A DNA stretch of 64,000 bases from an uncultured Coriobacteriia bacterium (lineage in GTDB: Bacteria > Actinomycetota > Coriobacteriia > Coriobacteriales > QAMH01). Both the position numbers and the translations under genes were made by a program. This document shows, piece after piece, positions 1 to 59,893 of the stretch (positions within the stretch are counted from its first letter, which is position 1; every line of letters begins with the position of its first letter). Under the pieces are notes generated by a model that was given only the letters and a program-made list of their open reading frames with translations, had not been told where the DNA came from and did not search any database. The DNA is taken from assembly GCA_948466335.1 (NCBI GenBank), contig CAOKAE010000006.1, forward strand, positions 11,171-75,170, given 5' to 3'.

Positions 1-747
1 CTTCGCGAGTTTGAGGATGGTATCCATAACGGGCTTGACACCGGCACAGTCAATGAAGACATCGATGTCGACTGCAGGGCCGAAAGGTGTCATCGTCGTG
101 CCGAAGACCTCCTCGACGTTCTCCATGAACTTGGGGTCTGCTGAATTGAGTATGATGGCGCCCATGGCTTCCGCGTCCTTGAGTCTGTCGTCACGCACGT
201 CGGCCACGGCGACCTTCTTGACACCCTGGCCAATCAGAGCGTTGAGGCAGCACAGGCCAATGGGACCGGCGCCAAAGATGAGGACCTTATCGCTCTTCTT
301 TGTGTGTACTGCATTCTTGCCGTGGATACCCACGCAGAACGGCTCGATAAGCGCGGCCTCCTTGAAATCGACGCTATCGGGCAGTTTATAGACGTTGTAA
401 TTGACCTTGGCGTTCTCGATGAGCACTTTCTCCGAGAAGCCACCGCACTCGCAGCAGGCAACCTTTCCAGCCAGCTTGCAAGTTTCGGGATTGACCCAAA
501 CGCGATCTCCAACCTTGACGTCTTTCACCTTGGAACCAACTTCGGTGATGACACCGGCAAATTCGTGTCCGAATTCATTGCCGGCATGAATGCCCACGGC
601 AGATCCGTCATAGGTCCATGCCGTAACATCGCTTCCGCAGACGCCTGCATACTTGATCTCGATAACGGCATCATTGGGACCTGCCTTCGGCTCCTCTACA
701 TCCTCGAAGGCAAAATCTCGAGGTCCATTATAAATCGCGCGTTTCAT
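1..747 (-). CDS. Zn-dependent alcohol/polyol dehydrogenase (medium-chain dehydrogenase/reductase family); C-terminus cut by window edge
   Basis: Not in the ORF track because there is no stop inside the window. Own translation of the minus strand from ATG at 747-745 gives MKRAIYNGPRDFAFEDVEEPKAGPNDAVIEIKYAGVCGSDV...GNEFGHEFAGVITEVGSKV...VLIFGAGPIGLCCL. It has the GHE catalytic-Zn motif and a GxGxxG Rossmann motif. RBS AAGGAAAGGA lies 8 nt upstream. The + ORF 304..849 is its antisense shadow. Confidence 0.8.
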   Translation of the reverse strand, partial: MKRAIYNGPRDFAFEDVEEPKAGPNDAVIEIKYAGVCGSDVTAWTYDGSAVGIHAGNEFGHEFAGVITEVGSKVKDVKVGDRVWVNPETCKLAGKVACCECGGFSEKVLIENAKVNYNVYKLPDSVDFKEAALIEPFCVGIHGKNAVHTKKSDKVLIFGAGPIGLCCLNALIGQGVKKVAVADVRDDRLKDAEAMGAIILNSADPKFMENVEEVFGTTMTPFGPAVDIDVFIDCAGVKPVMDTILKLAK

Positions 748-880
748 TGGCTTAATCCTTTCCTTACTGGAATGAGGCATACGACTTGCCAGCCATCCGG
801 TCAGATCCGAACGGATGAAGAAACACTTATTGGGTTTTTGATGTGCTAGCGAGTGATTACATCTAGTTCAGGGCGTTCGC

Positions 881-1156
881 TTACTTGGGCGCATTCGGAG
901 CTTGCGGGGCACCCGGGACCGTCGGGGCACCGGGAGCCGTGGGGGCGGGAGCACCCGTTGCGGCGGCACCAGCGGCATTAGCCTCGGCCATGAACTGGGC
1001 TTGCTGGGCTGCAAAGTCAACCTTCTCGTCGGGGAGCTCTTCGCCACATTCCTTGCACACCTTCGCTACGGGTGTGTTGTTCGTGCCGCATTTGGGGCAC
1101 TTCTTCATCTGAATCTCTGCTGGCCTAAAACACATGTCTCTCTCGTCCTTTCCCAT
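881..1156 (-). CDS. small Cys4 zinc-ribbon protein with Pro/Ala-rich tail
   Basis: CPKCG...x13...CKECG zinc-ribbon pair followed by AAGAAATGAPAPTAPGAPTVPGAPQAPNAPK. GC3-rich codons. The start is uncertain: ATG at 1156, 1135 or 1108, none with a well-placed RBS. Confidence 0.5.
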   Translation of the reverse strand: MGKDERDMCFRPAEIQMKKCPKCGTNNTPVAKVCKECGEELPDEKVDFAAQQAQFMAEANAAGAAATGAPAPTAPGAPTVPGAPQAPNAPK

Positions 1157-1192
1157 GCCAAAAGAATGAACAGGTCTCGTTTTCCTCCAATT

Positions 1193-1228
1193 AAAAGAAT
1201 CGGTCGAGGCTCTAATGGAACCTCGACC
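1193..1228 (-). terminator. intrinsic terminator after the FeS subunit gene
   Basis: Minus-strand RNA reads GGUCGAGG-(11 nt loop)-CCUCGACC followed by GAUUCUUUUAAUU. It starts 15 nt after the stop at 1243. Confidence 0.5.
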
Positions 1229-1242
1229 GACCGAATGCTGGA

Positions 1243-2043
1243 CTAGGTTAGCGGGATGTCACCAAGTCCTATGTCCTTCTCCACCGTGCTAACGGGGATT
1301 TCCTTGACCTTCCCCGCATTGTTGATGGTGAGGGTAAACTCTCCATCGGGTAGGTCGTTGAACCAGAAGTCACCGAAGTGATCAGTCTCTTCCACAAAGC
1401 GGCCAGCGGGACCATCGAGCGTGCAGATGGCACCTATGACGACTTCATTCTTGCTCGGGTCATAAACCGTGCCTGCGACGAACTTCTTCGGCAGGTTCTT
1501 GTACCAGACGTTGGGCTGCGTGCCATATTCAGTATGGAGTTTCACGGCACCTTCGAGGTCGAGGTCTTCCTCCTCGCCAAACTGGAGCGTGCCAACGTGG
1601 CAGTTATTCACGCAGCGCGGCTCGCTGATCGGCCAACCGCGATCCAGGAGGTGAGCACAACCCGTGCACTTCTGCGCGAGATTGAATTCCTCGTTAAAGA
1701 AGATGCAGTCATAGGGGCATGCGGCAACACACTTGCGGCAACCCTGGCACTTCGCCGGATCAATCCAGATGATGCCATCATCGCGGCGCTTGATTGCACC
1801 GTTCGGGCATGCTGCCATGCAGGAGGCGTTGGAGCACTGCTGGCACATCTTCGCCATATACGAAACTTTGACCTGCGGAATCGTGCCGCGTTCCTTTTGC
1901 TCGAGCTTCAGCCAGAACTGACCGGTGTCGGGCTGGGGCTTTGCATAGGGCATCCAGTCGTTACCGCAGTGCTCGTCCTTGCATGCAACCTGGCAGTTAT
2001 GGCAACCGACGCACTTCTTCAAATCAACAACGAATGTTTTCAT
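1243..2043 (-). CDS. 4Fe-4S ferredoxin-type electron-transfer (beta) subunit of a molybdopterin oxidoreductase, with C-terminal beta-rich extension
   Basis: Four Cys groups: CVGCHNCQVAC, CQQCSNASCMAACP, CQGCRKCVAACP and CTGC...CVNNC (DmsB/BthL-like). Residues ~188-266 (FVAGTVYD...VIGAICTL...DHFGDFWFNDLPDGEFTLTINNAGK) resemble a carboxypeptidase-regulatory/Ig-like beta domain. RBS GGGAGGAG lies upstream. Confidence 0.9.
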   Translation of the reverse strand: MKTFVVDLKKCVGCHNCQVACKDEHCGNDWMPYAKPQPDTGQFWLKLEQKERGTIPQVKVSYMAKMCQQCSNASCMAACPNGAIKRRDDGIIWIDPAKCQGCRKCVAACPYDCIFFNEEFNLAQKCTGCAHLLDRGWPISEPRCVNNCHVGTLQFGEEEDLDLEGAVKLHTEYGTQPNVWYKNLPKKFVAGTVYDPSKNEVVIGAICTLDGPAGRFVEETDHFGDFWFNDLPDGEFTLTINNAGKVKEIPVSTVEKDIGLGDIPLT

Positions 2044-2062
2044 AATGAGGGCTCCTCCCTTC

Positions 2063-4714
2063 TTATTCCACTACCCACGACTCGTACGTCAGACCCGTAT
2101 CGGGATCGTACGGGCGCTCGAACGCGTCCGGGTAATCCTTCTTCCACTGCTCCATCTCGGCGTCCTCGACCTTCGAGCACTCGACGAGATAGCCGCTGAC
2201 GACGAAACCATGGCACTTGCTCGAAATCGGCGCATCCGGCGAAATGAGGTTCACCGAGCCACCGCGATCGAGATGCGGGGCAATGGGATCAGAATGTGAA
2301 CCCTTGGAGACCATGATGCTCTGCGGCATGACGCGCTCAGTAACGTAGGCGGCGCAGAGAATCGTGCCGCGCTCGTTCTCGACCTTGACGATGTCACCAT
2401 ACTCGATACCGCGCGCCGCGGCATCTTCCGGATGAATCCAGCATGGCTCATACTGGTAGCCGTCCTTGCCGCGAATCTTGCACGTGTCGACCTCACGGAA
2501 CCAGGTGATGTCATCGCACTGGGCGTGCAGACGCCAGTGGCTCGTGTTCGCGCACATGAGCAGCGGATACTTCTTGGCGCGCTCGCCAGCGAGCGTCTCG
2601 TCATGCGTCCAACCCTCGCTTGTGGGACCACCGGGGACCCACCTAGCGATGCCAGCGCGTTCCTTGTCACCGGGGAAGTGCTCCTCGAGCTCTGCGGCGT
2701 AGAACTGAATCTTGCCGCTTGGCGTGTCAAGGGGATTGGCGATGGGATCCTCGTAGAAGGCACGCATGCCAGGGTACCGCTCGTTATTCCAGTCCGGGGC
2801 GAGCTTCGGGACGTAGAAGCCCTTCTCCTTCAGTTCCTCGAAGCTGATCTCCTCCTGGATTTGCGAGTTGTCGTAGGCGTAGCGGAACCACTCCTCCTCG
2901 TTCATGCCGAGGTTGATGCCCTCTGCCACACCAAAGTCCTCGCCGATGCGGCAGCCTATCTGGAAGTCGCTCATCGACTCGCCGCGTGGCTCGCAGGACT
3001 TCTTCTGGATGCAGGCAACGTCAACGTTGACGTTCTGGCTGGAGCCGACGATGTCATTTTCCTCGAGACAGGTGGTAACGGGGAGGACGAGGTCGCAGAA
3101 CAAGGAGTCATTCTCGAGCCACTGATGGTTGCTGACGAAAAACTCGACAGACGGGTCGCGCATGGCGTCCTGGAACTTGAAGCCGTTGTTCCAGCAGGTC
3201 TGGTTGCAGGGCTTCTCGGACCACAGCATGTGAACTTCGGTGCCGTTGTTTTCCGGCGAAGCGGGATAATGATGCTCGACAAACTGGTCGGCGGCGTTCA
3301 CGTACACGATCTGCGGGCTACCCCACCACGTGATGTCTTTGTCGAGAATGGCCCTGGCAATGCGCGTACGCGGAATGTCCTGCGGCATCGGCACGTATTG
3401 GCGGAACTGATTGATCATGAGGGGAGCCGCCGAGGGACCGCCCGGAACCTGCATGGCCTGCTTCGCGGGAGCAAGGCAGCCAAGGTGCAGCTGCTGCACG
3501 CCCGGCTTGCCAAGGCCCTGCATGGCGAGCTTGTAGGCTTCGGTACGACCAATCTCATGGGAATACGGTCCACGGTTGTGACCTGCGGAGAAGTGGGCGA
3601 TGGACGTTCGCTGACGTGCCCATTCGCGAGCGACGGCACGAATCGTCCACGGCTTGACACCGCAGATTTCGGACGCCCACTCGGGCGTCTTGGGAACACC
3701 GTCCTCCTCGCCGAGAGCGTAGGCGCGAACTTTCTCGAAACCCACCGTATGGGTCTTGACGTATTCGCGGTCGTAGAGGCCTTCGGTCATCCAGACGTAC
3801 ATGATCGCGTAGTCGAACGCCGCATCCGTGTTGGGCAGAATCGGAATCCACTTCATCTCGTCATGGGCGACGGCAGTATAGTTGCAGAAGGGGTCGATGA
3901 CGACGAACTTCTTACCGATGTCCAGCCAATAGCGCATAATCTGGCTCATGTGCTGACCGGCATAGTTCTGCGTGGTCTCGAGGTCGCAGGCCTGGAAGAT
4001 GAGCAGGTCGGTGTACTTCGTGATGTCCTGGACGACGCCCCAGGCCTGATTCATGGGAGGGGGTGCGGCAAAGCCAAGACCAAAGGTTGCGCCCGTGCCC
4101 CAAACGTGCTTGGCGCCCCAGTAGAAACCCTCGACGGAGTCCGGCGTGCGAACCTCTCGGGTGTAACCCTTCAGATGGCCGAGTAGCTGCATGTGGATGC
4201 CGCCACCGGCATGGAGCATCTTGGATTCCTTATGACCATTCTCGCCGATGCACAAGATGGAGTTGGGGCCGTACGTATCGTACATACGGTTAATTTCCGA
4301 CTCGATGATCTTGATGGCCTCGTCCCAGCTGATCCTCTTGAACTTCGACTTGCCGCGATTCTGCGCGTTGATCTTGTCCGGATCACCACCTGGCTCCCAG
4401 TCTACACGCTTCAGGGGGTACAAAACGCGGTTCTTCGAGTAAACGCGCTTCTTGTACGCCATTGCGTGATAGGGCGGGGCAGCCTTCGTCGGGCACTTGA
4501 GCGTCTTGCCGCGAGCGGTGATCTCCCACAGGCTGTCCTTGAGCTCATCCATCGTGTACTTGGTGGTGTACTCAAGCGGCCTGATGCGAACGATCTTGCC
4601 ATCCTTACTGTCGATGGCGGAGATCTCACCACCGAAACCGCCGCATGCGATCCCTCGGTAGTTTGTCTCCTCGGGGGTCTTGCACGGCTCCGTGACTTGC
4701 TTTTGATCACTCAT
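2063..4714 (-). CDS. molybdopterin (bis-MGD, DMSO-reductase superfamily) oxidoreductase catalytic subunit, pyrogallol-hydroxytransferase-like, cytoplasmic
   Basis: 883 aa from ATG 4714 (RBS GAGGAAGGAG); the track ORF runs up to 4780. It sits 19 nt upstream of the FeS subunit gene. The length and layout fit large Mo-oxidoreductase alpha subunits. The N-terminus MSDQKQVTEPCKTPEETNYRGIACGGFGGEISAIDSKDGKIVRIRP has no RR Tat motif and no CxxCxxxC cluster motif. Confidence 0.88.
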   Translation of the reverse strand: MSDQKQVTEPCKTPEETNYRGIACGGFGGEISAIDSKDGKIVRIRPLEYTTKYTMDELKDSLWEITARGKTLKCPTKAAPPYHAMAYKKRVYSKNRVLYPLKRVDWEPGGDPDKINAQNRGKSKFKRISWDEAIKIIESEINRMYDTYGPNSILCIGENGHKESKMLHAGGGIHMQLLGHLKGYTREVRTPDSVEGFYWGAKHVWGTGATFGLGFAAPPPMNQAWGVVQDITKYTDLLIFQACDLETTQNYAGQHMSQIMRYWLDIGKKFVVIDPFCNYTAVAHDEMKWIPILPNTDAAFDYAIMYVWMTEGLYDREYVKTHTVGFEKVRAYALGEEDGVPKTPEWASEICGVKPWTIRAVAREWARQRTSIAHFSAGHNRGPYSHEIGRTEAYKLAMQGLGKPGVQQLHLGCLAPAKQAMQVPGGPSAAPLMINQFRQYVPMPQDIPRTRIARAILDKDITWWGSPQIVYVNAADQFVEHHYPASPENNGTEVHMLWSEKPCNQTCWNNGFKFQDAMRDPSVEFFVSNHQWLENDSLFCDLVLPVTTCLEENDIVGSSQNVNVDVACIQKKSCEPRGESMSDFQIGCRIGEDFGVAEGINLGMNEEEWFRYAYDNSQIQEEISFEELKEKGFYVPKLAPDWNNERYPGMRAFYEDPIANPLDTPSGKIQFYAAELEEHFPGDKERAGIARWVPGGPTSEGWTHDETLAGERAKKYPLLMCANTSHWRLHAQCDDITWFREVDTCKIRGKDGYQYEPCWIHPEDAAARGIEYGDIVKVENERGTILCAAYVTERVMPQSIMVSKGSHSDPIAPHLDRGGSVNLISPDAPISSKCHGFVVSGYLVECSKVEDAEMEQWKKDYPDAFERPYDPDTGLTYESWVVE

Positions 4715-4936
4715 ACAGACTCCTTCCTCACTTCTCTCCACATCCAACACGTACAAAGCCGAAAGACTCTCCACCAGCATCTTTTCCTAAGGTTGTGTTT
4801 AAGGACGCGTTTGGGACAGTCTTCTCGACGCTTCGGTTAGATGATGTCAAAGCGAGGCGATACGGCGATAGCCGCCTAGGGGTACCAAAGAGTAGCCTTT
4901 AGTACATTATTCACTGGCGAGATTGTAAGAAAGGAA

Positions 4937-5875
4937 CTATCGAAAGACCCTGTCATCAAGCAAGCGCATCTCGATGGCATGCGTCGCAATCTGGACACGA
5001 TTATCCACGTCGAGCTTGCGCATGAGACTCGCCACGTACTTCTTGACCGTGCTGTTGCTCAGGAAGAGCTGGTTGGCAATTTCCTGATTTGAAAAACCGT
5101 CGGCGATGAGCTCCATGAGCTCACGCTCGCGTTTTGAAAGAAGCCTGTCTTTTTCAAAAAGCTCCTCGCGCGCTTTCATCGAGATATGCACCGACACCGA
5201 GTTTGGATTAACATGAATCGTCTCTGCCGGAATGGGAAGGGCGGACATGGCGGAAGAGGCAGAATCGGGCACTCCGTCCCATCGGGGTCGCCAATTGATA
5301 TTATTGGCAAGGGGGCCGACTACTTGGCCAAGCATGAGAGCGTAATCCATGTCCTGGCTCGTCACTGGAAGCATGTCCTCGTACATCGCACAGTATATGC
5401 CGACGGATTCTGATCCAGCGATAAGCGGCGTGACAAGCAGCATGCGGCATCCGAGGTCGAATAGTTCGTCTGTCACGCAATCGTCTATGCGCGGATGCAG
5501 GCAATCAACGACTTCCGGTGCACCTCCCATGATGATTTCGGTGCGTCCCATATCTTTTGCTATGCGCGACATGCCCCCAACGGATACCGCATTCATGTCC
5601 ATGAGGGATGCGCACTCGACCATATGGTTGCCATATGTGTCCATGAGATATAGGCAGAATCGATCACTGCGTAAAGCATCGGACATTGCCTTATAGAGAT
5701 TTCTGATAAATGTGGGGGGATTCGAGCAATGCCGTGCCGTCATGGCTACATTCGCGATGCATTGCGCACGCTCGCGCCAGTTCAGGGATGTGAGCAGCTT
5801 CTGCTTGGTCGAGCTTTCGCCATCACCTGAAAGGAAGATACTCTCCGCAATCGTCCAGTCTAGAACTTCCTGCAT
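4937..5875 (-). CDS. LuxR/GerE-family transcriptional regulator with N-terminal GAF-like sensor domain (soluble)
   Basis: C-terminal HTH: SKRERELMELIADGFSNQEIANQLFLSNSTVKKYVASLMRKLDVDNRVQ. The N-terminal ~200 aa has a GAF-like pattern (DRFCLYLMD...MLLVTPLIAGSESVGIYCAMY) and no hydrophobic TM segments. The ATG at 5875 with RBS GGGGGAG is preferred over the TTG at 5893. Confidence 0.8.
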   Translation of the reverse strand: MQEVLDWTIAESIFLSGDGESSTKQKLLTSLNWRERAQCIANVAMTARHCSNPPTFIRNLYKAMSDALRSDRFCLYLMDTYGNHMVECASLMDMNAVSVGGMSRIAKDMGRTEIIMGGAPEVVDCLHPRIDDCVTDELFDLGCRMLLVTPLIAGSESVGIYCAMYEDMLPVTSQDMDYALMLGQVVGPLANNINWRPRWDGVPDSASSAMSALPIPAETIHVNPNSVSVHISMKAREELFEKDRLLSKRERELMELIADGFSNQEIANQLFLSNSTVKKYVASLMRKLDVDNRVQIATHAIEMRLLDDRVFR

Positions 5876-5980
5876 CTTCGCTCCCCCCGCCAACTCGCGG
5901 CAGGGCGATTATAGCAAGACTATTCTCTGTCGCAAATGGTGAATTAACCTTCCCTAAAACTCACCTAAACTGCGTGCAGG

Positions 5981-6092
5981 GAAGCCGTGAAGCGGAGGTC
6001 CAAGGGAGCGCAGCATCAAGTAACCTAACATCGGGCAGGTCGTCGAACCGAGGTCCAAGGGAGCGACCATCGAGGCGAGACGGCCTGCCCGA
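5981..6092. repeat. structured intergenic repeat, copy A
   Basis: A 16-nt direct repeat GAGGTCCAAGGGAGCG occurs at 5995-6010 and 6050-6065. A 14-bp stem pairs TCGGGCAGGTCGTC (6031-6044) with GACGGCCTGCCCGA (6079-6092). The module AAGTAACC..CATCGGGCAGGYCGTCGARCCGAGGTYMAAGGGAGCGA recurs inverted at 58460-58575. Confidence 0.75.
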
Positions 6093-6097
6093 CGCAT

Positions 6098-7390
6098 TTA
6101 TTCGTCTAGCGTCGTGATGATGGCGTTGTCGACGAGGTAGCGACTGGCGGCATAGCGAGCGGCGACCTCGCGCAGCGCGAACCCGCGCCCGCTACTCTCC
6201 ATCTCGCTTCGCACGAGCTCCGGATTCATCGGGTTGAGTTCGGTGCAGGCGCCCATGATGTCGTCGTCGGTCACGACGAGCCCTTCGTGCTCGAAGAGCG
6301 CGTCGAGGGCGTAGTCGCAGGCCAGCGTCTGCTTCGCCTGCATCATGATGCCGATCTTGTAGTTCTGCTCGCCGCCTTGCTCCTCGATGAACTCCGCCAT
6401 CGTGACGCCCTGCTGTGAGAGCTGGTTGCGCAGCGTCGCCTCGATGGAAGTGGCGGTCGCGTCGAAGGCGGCATCGGGGATTTCGCCCTCGAGGCGTTTG
6501 GCGAGCTCGGTCTGCGCGATGGTGATGAGCTGCATGTCATAGTCGTGCAGCGCCTGGGTCTCGAAGGAGAGGCGTATCTCCTCGCGCAGCTTGTCGATGG
6601 AATCATAGCTCGGCATGACGCGTTTGACCCATTCGTCGGTGAGCTCGGGCAGCACCTCTTCCTTCATCTCCTTGATAGTGACCGTGCAATCGTAGGTGCG
6701 CATGACGCGCAGGCCGTTGCTGTCATAGCCCTCGCCCTCGAACTCGAAGGTCTTGGTCTCGCCCACGTCCATGCCCAGCAGCTGCTCGTCGAAGCTCTCG
6801 GGCATGAATCCGCGGCCCATGGAGTAGACACGACTGTCGGTGCTGATGCCGCTCAGCCGCTCGCCGTCAAGGCGCACCTCGATGGCGATGAGGAAGCTGT
6901 CGTCAGGTCCGACCGGATGGGGGTCGGCGGTCACGAAATCGGAGTACATGTTCATGTTCGCGCGTATCTCGGCGTCGACGTCGACCTCGACGGGCTTGAA
7001 GGCGGGAACCGTGATCTCGACGGGATCGTACGAGCTCAAGGTGAACCGGGGCTTGGGCTCGACATCGATCTGGAAGGTAAACGCGTGGTCGCGGTGGAAA
7101 TTGGGGGAGGGTTGAATCTTGGGCTGCGCAAGCGGTGTGATGCCGCGCTGGTCGAGCGCATAGGGCACGAGCATGTTGATGGCCTGCGACTGCAGGACGG
7201 AATCGGCATCGTTGATCTTGAGATGTTCAGCCAGCGCCTCGGACACGGTCTTCTCCGGGTCGGGACGAAGACCGAACCTGCTCGCGATCGCTCCCTGTGC
7301 GCGGTCGAGCGCCGCGTTGACCTCTTGGGCGCTTGCCGTGATGCTCAGGCGAATCATGCCGTTGTCGAGTTGCTTTTCCTTGACCTTCAT
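6098..7390 (-). CDS. tig: trigger factor
   Basis: 430 aa. The pattern along the length matches trigger factor: an N-terminal ribosome-binding region, F.F..DVEPKP...YDPVEITVP...VDVDAEI, a PPIase-like core (GRGFMPESFDEQLLGMDVGETKTFEF), then IKEMKEEVLPELTDEWVK and a C-terminal arm domain. Confidence 0.85.
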   Translation of the reverse strand: MKVKEKQLDNGMIRLSITASAQEVNAALDRAQGAIASRFGLRPDPEKTVSEALAEHLKINDADSVLQSQAINMLVPYALDQRGITPLAQPKIQPSPNFHRDHAFTFQIDVEPKPRFTLSSYDPVEITVPAFKPVEVDVDAEIRANMNMYSDFVTADPHPVGPDDSFLIAIEVRLDGERLSGISTDSRVYSMGRGFMPESFDEQLLGMDVGETKTFEFEGEGYDSNGLRVMRTYDCTVTIKEMKEEVLPELTDEWVKRVMPSYDSIDKLREEIRLSFETQALHDYDMQLITIAQTELAKRLEGEIPDAAFDATATSIEATLRNQLSQQGVTMAEFIEEQGGEQNYKIGIMMQAKQTLACDYALDALFEHEGLVVTDDDIMGACTELNPMNPELVRSEMESSGRGFALREVAARYAASRYLVDNAIITTLDE

Positions 7391-59817: not shown

Positions 59818-59893
59818 GGGGATATAGCTCAGCTGGGAGAGCGCATGACTGGCAGTCATGAGGTCAGGGGTTCGAACCCCCTTATCTCCACCA
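59818..59893 (+). tRNA. tRNA-Ala (anticodon GGC)
   Basis: Folded by hand into a 76-nt cloverleaf. Acceptor GGGGATA/TATCTCC with the G3:U70 Ala identity pair. D arm GCTC/GAGC. Anticodon stem CATGA/TCATG with loop CTGGCAG. T arm AGGGG-TTCGAAC-CCCCT. Encoded CCA. Confidence 0.95.

Follow-up and report, generated by a model that had tools for sequence, protein, structure and literature searches.

A four-cluster, AthL-like molybdoenzyme cassette in an uncultured Coriobacteriia bacterium: a sister family of pyrogallol-phloroglucinol transhydroxylase with a possible role in the transformation of polyhydroxylated compounds

This study examines a gene cassette at one end of a 64,000-nucleotide stretch of DNA (hereafter the window) from an uncultured Coriobacteriia bacterium (assembly GCA_948466335.1, contig CAOKAE010000006.1, positions 11,171 to 75,170), in which a molybdenum-containing catalytic subunit (alpha) and an iron-sulfur (FeS) subunit (beta) are encoded together with a regulator, a small zinc-ribbon protein and a dehydrogenase. 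An earlier note on the window had described five co-oriented genes on the minus strand, and the open reading frames (ORFs) were recovered with the same coordinates (Table 1). The note had also judged the block by eye to be lower in guanine-plus-cytosine (GC) content than its neighbours, and measurement bore this out, with 56.4% for positions 1-5893 against 61.7% for the remaining window. Among relatives of solved structure the alpha and beta subunits are closest, both in sequence and in predicted fold, to AthL and BthL, the large and small subunits of the pyrogallol-phloroglucinol transhydroxylase (pyrogallol hydroxytransferase) of Pelobacter acidigallici. Alignment and tree nevertheless indicate that the window enzyme is not an orthologue of AthL and that it belongs to a large, uncharacterised AthL-like sister family, found mainly in Eggerthellaceae, of which it represents an atypical subtype with a four-cluster beta subunit and with linked dehydrogenase and PntAB genes.

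Table 1. Features of the cassette and of its junction with the neighbouring tig gene, in window coordinates.
Feature	Coordinates	Strand	Remarks
Junction element directly after the tig stop codon	5979..6092	.	32-nt direct repeat and long hairpin; strand unassigned
Sigma-70-like promoter candidate for the regulator gene	5908..5935	-	TTGCGA, 16 nt, TG-TATAAT
GAF-like/LuxR (GerE) one-component regulator, soluble, 312 aa	4937..5875	-	ORF reaches a TTG at 5893
Regulator-alpha intergenic region	4715..4936	-	Conserved blocks and alpha ribosome-binding site
Bis(molybdopterin guanine dinucleotide) (bis-MGD) catalytic subunit alpha, AthL-like, 883 aa	2063..4714	-	Pfam, PDB, Foldseek
FeS subunit beta, BthL-like, 266 aa, with C-terminal beta-barrel domain	1243..2043	-	4v4c_B match
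Stem-loop with T-run between the beta and zinc-ribbon genes	1198..1232	-	Stem conserved
Small Cys4 zinc-ribbon (or rubredoxin-like) protein with Pro/Ala-rich tail	881..1156	-	Zn_ribbon Pfam matches
Zn-dependent medium-chain dehydrogenase/reductase (MDR), first 249 of 339 codons	1..747	-	ADH_N and ADH_zinc_N

The exact beta protein was found on 23 metagenome contigs, one of which, of 120 kb (locus L001), contains the window and was used to follow the operon for 8 kb past window position 1. Beyond that position, on the same strand, lie the complete 339-residue MDR gene, a 244-residue short-chain dehydrogenase/reductase (SDR), a major facilitator superfamily (MFS) transporter, PntA and PntB of a proton-translocating NAD(P) transhydrogenase (734 and 651 bits), a second MFS transporter, a 171-residue SlyD-like FKBP with a Cys/His-rich tail, and a 144-residue orphan. 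The dehydrogenase, which the note had supposed might act on a side chain or a downstream product, is therefore one member of a longer operon. Both MFS proteins score far below cut-off, their nearest matches being carriers of the monocarboxylate, bile-salt and oxalate-formate types. At its distal end (L001 20089-20801) the cassette adjoins an oppositely oriented AbiEii (abortive-infection/toxin) gene.

The alpha subunit matches the Pfam families PF00384 (Molybdopterin), PF01568 (Molydop_binding) and PF21423, the AhtL-like first domain, the last with 33.6 bits against a cut-off of 27, while no match to Molybdop_Fe4S4 and no FS0 Cys motif was found, its first 30 residues holding only two cysteines. 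Public gene calls start the protein at an upstream ATG at 4780 (905 residues) that is not conserved; the real start is at 4714 (883 residues), because it has a ribosome-binding site, GGAAGGAG, and this site and the 25 nt upstream of it are identical in two orthologous cassettes. Against PDB sequences the top match is 4v4c_A, the pyrogallol hydroxytransferase large subunit, with 313 bits, followed by dimethyl sulfoxide (DMSO) and trimethylamine N-oxide (TMAO) reductases at about 180-217, with acetylene hydratase (2e7z) at 41 and the ethylbenzene-dehydrogenase branch at 38. A family profile built from 31 members gave the same picture, with 437 bits for AthL, 242-265 for TMAO/DMSO reductases and 79 for acetylene hydratase. 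An AlphaFold2 model of alpha (mean predicted local distance difference test, pLDDT, 82.8) retrieved 4v4c_A first in Foldseek (E 5e-67, template-modelling (TM) score 0.83), with DMSO/TMAO/MtsZ reductases at 0.74-0.76, the ethylbenzene-dehydrogenase branch at 0.62 and acetylene hydratase at 0.57.

The putative molybdenum-ligand loop of alpha reads TPDSVEGFYWGA, compared with NPDSWEGWHWGG in AthL and GDYSTGAAQV in enzymes of the DorA/TorA type, so that its core, TPDSVEG, resembles the NPDSWEG of AthL and is unlike the GDYSTGA of DMSO/TMAO reductases. Asp192-Ser193 of alpha align with Asp174-Ser175 of AthL and are invariant in the 31 family members; the AthL pair comprises the catalytic aspartate and the serine that ligates molybdenum. 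Ser193, preceded by Asp192, is thus the predicted metal ligand of alpha, which supplies by alignment to AthL Ser175 the residue that the earlier note had proposed to identify. AthL His144, Arg153 and Tyr404 belong to the substrate and cosubstrate pocket; the His144/Arg153 stretch is replaced in the family by an invariant set of its own (E158, H161, S164, K165, G171, G172), in which His161 lies one position off His144 in the alignment and Arg153 stands opposite Ala or Gly, and AthL segment 387-442, which contains Tyr404, found no alignment to alpha, also when the family profile was used. With no FS0 motif, a P-D-S loop of the AthL type and a beta subunit with an extra C-terminal domain, the pair has the AthL/BthL architecture that the note had recognized.

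These comparisons bear equally on the reading that the cassette encodes a cytoplasmic S- or N-oxide reductase of the BisC, DorA or TorA type, acting for example on sulfoxides or N-oxides from the diet with NADPH supplied by PntAB as the ultimate reductant. DMSO, TMAO and MtsZ reductases are indeed the second-best relatives by both bit score (about 215-265) and fold, the best NCBIfam model for alpha is bisC_fam (306 bits, far under its cut-off of 1017), PntAB lies in the operon, and the biotin sulfoxide reductase of Rhodobacter uses NADPH directly. We consider this reading distinctly improbable, however, in view of the AthL-type first domain and a P-D-S rather than G-D-Y-S loop, an obligate BthL-type beta with a C-terminal domain where BisC, DorA and TorA have no FeS subunit, and dehydrogenase and VOC companions that would have no role there.

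The four-cluster beta might suggest a conventional membrane-bound enzyme of respiration, a reductase with its anchor encoded beyond the window; such a beta is typical of subunits of the DmsB/PsrB type and is the only feature that fits complexes such as DmsABC, Psr or Ttr. Against it, alpha has no FS0 motif and no twin-arginine motif, the latter agreeing with the note's statement that a twin-arginine translocation (Tat) leader is lacking, and no NrfD/DmsC-type anchor gene was found in the window, in the 8 kb downstream or 6 kb upstream on the 120-kb contig, in the orthologous cassettes or in about 80 family loci. The respiratory reading is effectively refuted by the extended contig, and the claims of a missing membrane anchor and of a non-respiratory system have survived extension of the contig past position 1. 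The accompanying claim that there is no chaperone gene stood in part, in that neither the window nor the 8-kb extension holds a gene of the TorD/DmsD/NarJ type, but a SlyD-like FKBP gene closes the cassette.

To examine the relation to the true transhydroxylase, the N-terminal half of AthL served as query against genomes in which each species was represented once; this yielded 80 loci (L106-L185) that are 62-96% identical to this half, most of them 76-96%. They include members of Geopsychrobacteraceae (96%), Holophaga foetida DSM 6591 (84%) and Eubacterium oxidoreducens DSM 3217 (78%), the last being the classical rumen organism of pyrogallol-phloroglucinol isomerization, as well as Parasporobacterium and metagenome-assembled genomes (MAGs) of gut Lachnospiraceae, Eubacterium and Flavonifractor. 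The clade spans Desulfobacterota, Acidobacteriota, Thermoleophilia/Actinomycetota and Firmicutes, and recent horizontal spread is suggested because the N-terminal half remains mostly 76-96% identical across phyla. More divergent paralogues stand beside the true transhydroxylase in Holophaga and in an Actinomycetes MAG (L108). The window alpha shares only 36% identity with the N-terminal and 27% with the C-terminal half of AthL, and over its full length is 33% identical to the transhydroxylase clade and 27% to Escherichia coli TorA. With TorA as the root, a neighbour-joining tree places the true transhydroxylases in one clade and the window family in a separate sister clade, with an Oscillospiraceae/Actinomycetes group on the side of the window family; three entries in this tree (Oscillo_L020, Oscillo_L022 and Actino_L108_c) were in a wrong frame or fragmentary and were disregarded, so that Oscillospiraceae were placed by means of L019 and BLAST identities. 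The true loci consist of alpha and beta with no zinc-ribbon or FKBP gene, and a VOC gene occurs in 1 of the 80.

The Pelobacter acidigallici enzyme, which the note had offered as the model, therefore holds as a model of architecture and fails as an orthologue. It follows that a true pyrogallol-phloroglucinol transhydroxylase (EC 1.97.1.2) in Coriobacteriia, with the SDR serving as phloroglucinol reductase, appears very improbable, even though the architecture is the same and the enzyme is the best database match. In the known pyrogallol pathway the transhydroxylase is followed by an NADPH-dependent SDR, phloroglucinol reductase (PMC10470551), and the cassette does hold an NADP-type SDR together with PntAB. 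The tightness of the true clade, against 33-36% identity for the window alpha in a clade of its own, the four-cluster beta, the differing active-site neighbourhood and the want of zinc-ribbon and FKBP genes at true loci all speak the other way. The SDR and MDR were also considered as kin of phloroglucinol reductase, and no specific similarity was seen, the best matches being MupS/FabG and sorbitol dehydrogenase, respectively; this counts against the functional proposal made below as well.

The beta subunit gives a Pfam match to Fer4_11 and, in its C-terminal part, a match to a CarboxypepD_reg-like domain that remains below cut-off. Its PDB match to 4v4c_B (5e-52, 180 bits) covers residues 4-264 of 266 and so includes the C-terminal domain. 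Sixteen cysteines are arranged in four ferredoxin motifs, and beta is predicted to hold four [4Fe-4S] clusters, where the transhydroxylase small subunit has exactly three; the note's description of a BthL-like protein thus stands for the C-terminal beta-barrel domain and has to be amended for the clusters. Cys79, Cys99, Cys102 and Cys105 are absent in BthL and are missing in 68 of 80 aligned family betas. The 12 that keep all four are those of the window and its two orthologues, of Anaerolineae, Moorellaceae, Oscillospiraceae and Adlercreutzia ZJ176, and of two MAGs, together spanning four phyla; loss is all-or-none and has occurred in at least two lineages, namely the true transhydroxylases and an Eggerthellaceae subclade. 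By the usual ligand assignment for ferredoxin subunits with four clusters, such as NarH of NarGHI, these four cysteines would be the ligands of the distal cluster, which makes contact with an external partner. It is suggested that the fourth cluster is functional where present, because losses are all-or-none and the cysteines have been strictly kept in four phyla. The split between three and four clusters amounts to a natural experiment that can tell a vestigial FeS chain in the transhydroxylase scaffold from one that still conducts electrons.

When alpha was searched against 5.8 billion proteins, orthologue-level matches at 89% identity came first. A closely spaced series with identities of 55-71% followed, generically annotated throughout, from Coriobacteriales, Eggerthellaceae, Adlercreutzia, Gordonibacter, Anaerolineae, Chloroflexota and Moorellaceae. 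Genome scans gave 77 best family loci, none of them from Eggerthella lenta. Among the carriers are Gordonibacter faecis, Gordonibacter sp. 28C and Marseille-P2775, five strains of Adlercreutzia, Ellagibacter and Raoultibacter. Others are MAGs recovered from the guts of humans, mice, chickens, goats, sheep and roe deer, and Coriobacteriales MAGs with the labels Gx, Md and Nt, which resemble labels used in termite-gut MAG sets; several genomes have two or three family paralogues. In full-text literature searches no account of a characterised AthL-like enzyme of Coriobacteriia came to light; what is new here is a transhydroxylase scaffold in a separate and much larger clade with accessory genes of its own.

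Those accessory genes were counted from precomputed Pfam neighbourhoods and tblastn searches at the 46 loci with sufficient flank. A VOC/Glyoxalase_4 gene was present at 40, FKBP at 33, SDR at 27 and the zinc ribbon at 20; a GAF-HisKA_3 kinase with a GerE response regulator was present at 20 and a one-component GAF-GerE regulator at 4, MDR at 5 and PntA at 4. In the cassette of the window a VOC gene was sought and not found. PntAB beside an AthL-like alpha-beta pair was also seen in Gordonibacter (L047 and L057, sp. 28C and Marseille-P2775) and, the further loci being L083 and L086, in a paralogous locus of the MAG MGG04558, which carries the 95% orthologue, so that the link to PntAB is recurrent and not peculiar to the window. 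In an Anaerolinea MAG (L028, 1-4382 and 18430-20658) the AthL-like genes are flanked by three further molybdoenzymes of about 716-743 residues, each with a Molybdop_Fe4S4 domain at the N-terminus, and behind two of these come Fer4 proteins of 111-112 residues; this resembles the format of acetylene hydratase and of the Gordonibacter catechol dehydroxylases and stands beside the AthL-like format in a non-gut member of the Chloroflexi.

Two other MAG species (L010 and L009) share the block of regulator, alpha, beta, zinc-ribbon, MDR, SDR and MFS genes at 77-87% DNA identity, in L010 as far as into PntA. The flanks of both are unrelated to those of the window and lack tig, and DNA homology stops near window position 5800. 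The cassette thus behaves as a portable module. It looks mosaic itself, since PntAB has a GC content of 66% and its other genes have 53-59%.

The small zinc-ribbon protein, encoded immediately behind beta, represents a clearly delimited and conserved protein family. A conserved start, MCFRPAE, at 1135 gives 84 residues in place of the 91 of the full ORF, and the protein is 49% identical to the one in the same position in Gordonibacter. It was found by tblastn in 49 family loci (among them L024 12728-12946 and L010 9220-9486) with the pattern MCFRPAE..MKKCPxCG..(12)..CxxCGAEL..DFDADQ followed by a Pro/Ala-rich low-complexity tail, and was not found in the 80 true transhydroxylase loci. Its two CxxCG knuckles could bind Zn or, as in rubredoxin, Fe, and the protein may be a third subunit or serve in assembly. 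The SlyD-like FKBP (L001 18876-19391, about 7 kb past position 1) ends in a metal-binding tail, GGGCGCGHGHGHGH; FKBP adjoins the molybdoenzyme genes in the 33 loci counted above and may be a dedicated maturation factor in place of chaperones of the TorD/DmsD type.

The regulator gives Pfam matches to GerE (4e-21) and, weakly, to GAF (1e-3), and its N-terminal domain resembles the GAF domain of a family-linked Gordonibacter histidine kinase (E 2e-11). Orthologues 87% and 60% identical occur in the two related cassettes, and an Adlercreutzia locus encodes a clear GAF-GerE regulator of 311 residues. Public assemblies differ on its length, some giving 235 residues and others 312; the ATG at 5875 gives 312. 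The proposal of a dedicated GAF-LuxR regulator is well borne out, the protein being soluble and lying within the conserved cassette. Its candidate promoter agrees with 10 of 12 consensus positions and has an extended -10 element, as a sequence match alone. In the regulator-alpha intergenic region, alignment with L010 and L009 revealed conserved blocks, among them GGAGAGAAGTGAGGAAGGAGTCTGTATG, which is identical in all three; this region is likely to be the regulated promoter and operator. The hairpin that the note had seen after beta is real, with a 15-bp stem containing 8 GC pairs and a T-rich tail, and the stem sequence recurs in L010 and L009 with a variable loop; it is a candidate terminator, attenuator or mRNA-stabilising element.

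At the junction with tig the structured repeat reported earlier is likewise present, directly after the tig stop codon, but its fold is only modestly more stable than that of shuffled sequence (z-score -1.8). It contains a 32-nt direct repeat at 5979-6010 and 6034-6065, whose 16-nt exact core is unique in the window, so that this is not a dispersed element, and an inverted repeat at 6031-6044 and 6079-6092. It is probably the tig terminator and outside the portable cassette, because homology with the orthologous cassettes ends before it. Beyond the junction the window is housekeeping in nature, with tig, a Na/H exchanger, uppP, aro genes, gatCAB, lexA, nrdR, miaA/B, recA, RNase Y and J, ftsK and dapAB. 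An Rfam scan of 1-6400 gave no match, and a single tRNA gene at 59818-59890 on the plus strand is the sole Rfam match at gathering threshold in the whole 64 kb.

The note had set the cassette beside the catechol dehydroxylases of gut Actinobacteria (Dadh, Cldh, Dodh, Hcdh, Cadh, Eadh), and it could be supposed that the window enzyme belongs to that class. Catechol dehydroxylases group apart from the transhydroxylase, in a clade nearest to acetylene hydratase, those of E. lenta having Tat signals and membrane anchors and those of Gordonibacter being smaller and soluble, with a small 4Fe-4S protein as partner and an MFS gene adjacent (PMC7028382). LuxR-type regulators are found in the neighbourhood of the Gordonibacter urolithin enzymes (PMC12771579), whereas the regulators of the E. 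lenta catechol dehydroxylases are LuxR proteins with 12 transmembrane segments (PMC9734109). The cassette departs from the E. lenta type in all these points, with no Tat motif, no NrfD/DmsC gene and a soluble GAF-LuxR regulator in place of one with 12 transmembrane segments. In the style of its neighbourhood it recalls Gordonibacter, with no Tat signal, an FeS partner, an adjacent MFS gene and a LuxR-type regulator (PMC7028382, PMC12771579). Compared by description, however, the proteins differ, with an alpha of 883 residues and a multi-cluster beta of 266 where Gordonibacter has smaller enzymes and a small FeS protein, and acetylene hydratase, taken as the reference relative of the class, is remote from the window family (41-79 bits and a TM score of 0.57, against 313-437 bits for AthL). 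By this measure the window enzyme is not a catechol dehydroxylase, and its membership in that class seems scarcely tenable; of the comparison drawn in the note, the genomic context is what remains. The steroid 21-dehydroxylase cluster Elen_2451-2454 (FdhD, 4Fe-4S, molybdoenzyme, SPFH) was considered as a possible relative and set aside as improbable, as gene order and accessory genes, compared by description, differ and E. lenta is absent from the 77 best family loci.

The MDR has its best PDB matches among sorbitol, butanediol, arabinitol and xylitol dehydrogenases, that is, enzymes of the polyol-dehydrogenase type; its Zn ligands are conserved and an NAD-type Asp is present (VAVAD aligned to VVVTD of sorbitol dehydrogenases), so that it is predicted to use NAD(H). 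The SDR is nearest to MupS/FabG in sequence searches and receives only generic SDR models from NCBIfam. After beta-strand 2 it has a Ser-Arg motif, as in MupS and in the gluconate 5-dehydrogenase of Thermotoga, and because of this motif the SDR cofactor rules point to NADP(H). In a search of 5.8 billion proteins with the SDR its close relatives were 93, 80 and 56% identical and all others at most 46%, all of them unnamed generic SDRs, and the enzyme is thus rare. An NAD-type MDR, an NADPH-type SDR and PntAB in one operon suggest that hydride may be passed between pools within the pathway. The SDR typical of the three-cluster loci (L024 12989-13801 and equivalents) is different; it strongly resembles the borneol dehydrogenase of Pseudomonas (6m5n, 213 bits, E 4e-62) and also matches cyclohexanol dehydrogenase and levodione reductase, which hints at alicyclic secondary alcohols or ketones as intermediates in the pathways of those loci.

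These observations admit a reading in which the substrate is not aromatic at all. The molybdoenzyme would then be a water-dependent anaerobic hydroxylase or dehydrogenase of an alicyclic, terpenoid, steroid or cyclitol compound, adding or removing oxygen at a C-H or C-OH position, with MDR and SDR interconverting alcohol and ketone. The logic is that of ethylbenzene dehydrogenase followed by an alcohol dehydrogenase; it accords with an MDR of the polyol-dehydrogenase type and with the similarity of the typical family SDR to borneol dehydrogenase above all, a four-cluster beta could carry the electrons away, and an NAD-dependent MDR, an NADPH-dependent SDR and PntAB together resemble a set of enzymes for oxidation and subsequent reduction (epimerisation). 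We nonetheless regard it as unlikely, as the known molybdoenzymes that hydroxylate C-H bonds are those of the ethylbenzene-dehydrogenase branch, a far poorer match to alpha (38 bits, TM 0.62), the operon encodes neither a haem subunit nor any other acceptor of electrons, and the nearest characterised relative acts on phenols.

The reading we prefer, with a probability of roughly 40%, is that the cassette encodes a substrate-inducible cytoplasmic module, catabolic or transforming, that acts on a polyhydroxylated compound of plant origin, probably an aromatic one and possibly one with a carboxyl group. An aromatic substrate undergoing hydroxyl transfer or dehydroxylation is plausible by analogy, and this chemistry is proposed because in the sole characterised relative on the scaffold a hydroxyl is transferred from one polyphenol ring to another at a Ser-ligated molybdenum. 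The substrate would enter via an MFS transporter and be sensed by the GAF domain of the regulator, which would switch on the operon. The molybdoenzyme would then relocate or remove a ring hydroxyl to give a meta-dihydroxy ring of the resorcinol or phloroglucinol kind, the keto tautomer of which could be reduced by the NADPH-dependent SDR, while the NAD-dependent MDR might oxidise or reduce a secondary alcohol or ketone of an alicyclic intermediate. PntAB could balance the SDR and MDR steps by shifting hydride between the NADH and NADPH pools, and FKBP and the zinc-ribbon protein may either help in maturation or be parts of the enzyme, the latter as a third subunit. We lean slightly toward a molybdenum step that in the window subtype exchanges electrons with an outside partner, in a net reductive dehydroxylation or a hydroxylation, because this subtype retains the distal cluster that the redox-neutral transhydroxylase has lost.

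Several points weigh against this proposal. An identity of 33% to the transhydroxylase is barely above the 27% to TorA, and at such values chemistry is not safely transferable; the His144/Arg153 region appears to differ, and the Tyr404 segment is unaligned. No gene for an electron donor or acceptor of beta was found in the cassette, nor one for a ring-cleaving enzyme (cyclase-type hydrolase, aldolase or lyase), and therefore no complete degradation pathway is encoded there. The borneol-dehydrogenase-like SDR of the family would fit alicyclic alcohols as well as reduced phenols. Zinc-ribbon, FKBP and VOC companions are missing from the loci of true transhydroxylases, and therefore the biology of the AthL-like family differs from theirs. 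The remaining probability goes to explanations outside those considered here.

The molybdoenzymes known to dehydroxylate polyphenols come mainly from gut Coriobacteriia, and to our knowledge all those characterised from them belong to the acetylene-hydratase-related catechol dehydroxylase class. It is possible, though on our own estimate unlikely, that the AthL-like family constitutes a second, independent class of polyphenol-transforming molybdoenzymes in these bacteria, with a chemistry for which no enzyme is known. If so, it might remove or move hydroxyls other than those of catechols, such as the middle hydroxyl of pyrogallol-type rings in gallocatechin or in gallate metabolites, and we know of no enzyme that removes the 4'-hydroxyl from gallocatechin-type rings or converts pyrogallol to resorcinol. 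It might also account for loss of a resorcinol-type hydroxyl, as in the conversion of dihydroresveratrol to lunularin, the dehydroxylase for which is listed as unknown in a 2026 review (PMC13515148). In that case the window subtype would put to net-redox (reductive) use a scaffold for which only redox-neutral transhydroxylation is known. Gordonibacter, Adlercreutzia, Ellagibacter and many animal-gut MAGs carry a large multi-paralogue family that is related to the sole molybdoenzyme known to move hydroxyls from one phenol to another and has a conserved, distinctive neighbourhood and sensors of its own. The family provides inducible candidates for orphan reactions of dietary relevance, and the GAF-based regulators could be used as reporters in finding the substrates.

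Set against known systems, the cassette is most like AthL/BthL (PDB 4V4C), likewise a soluble pair of about 880 and 270 residues, with an alpha that lacks an N-terminal FeS cluster and has the same type of first domain and P-D-S loop. It differs in sequence, with alpha 33% and beta about 40% identical and the window enzyme in a clade separate from that of the true transhydroxylases, in the four cysteines for a fourth cluster that BthL, with three clusters, lacks, and in its companions, as the GAF regulator, zinc-ribbon protein, FKBP, MDR, SDR and PntAB are all wanting at true transhydroxylase loci. Within the AthL-like family of Eggerthellaceae, Anaerolineae and Moorellaceae, alpha is 55-95% identical and the order is shared, from regulator, alpha, beta and zinc ribbon to dehydrogenases, MFS and FKBP, with GAF-based regulators; most members, however, have a three-cluster beta (68/80), one or two VOC genes (40/46 loci) and the borneol-dehydrogenase-like SDR, whereas the window group has a four-cluster beta, no VOC gene and a rare SDR together with the MDR. 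DorA, TorA, MtsZ and BisC share the type III DMSO-reductase fold, a Ser-ligated molybdenum and the lack of FS0, but are single subunits, most of them Tat-bearing, with a G-D-Y-S loop, and TorA is 27% identical. The Gordonibacter-type enzymes Cldh, Dodh, Gp Hcdh and Eadh1-3 resemble the window system as cytoplasmic bis-MGD enzymes with an FeS partner, MFS and LuxR-type regulators, in the same bacterial class and probably in the same niche of polyphenol transformation; being smaller and of the acetylene-hydratase branch, they share with it a genomic style and not homology.

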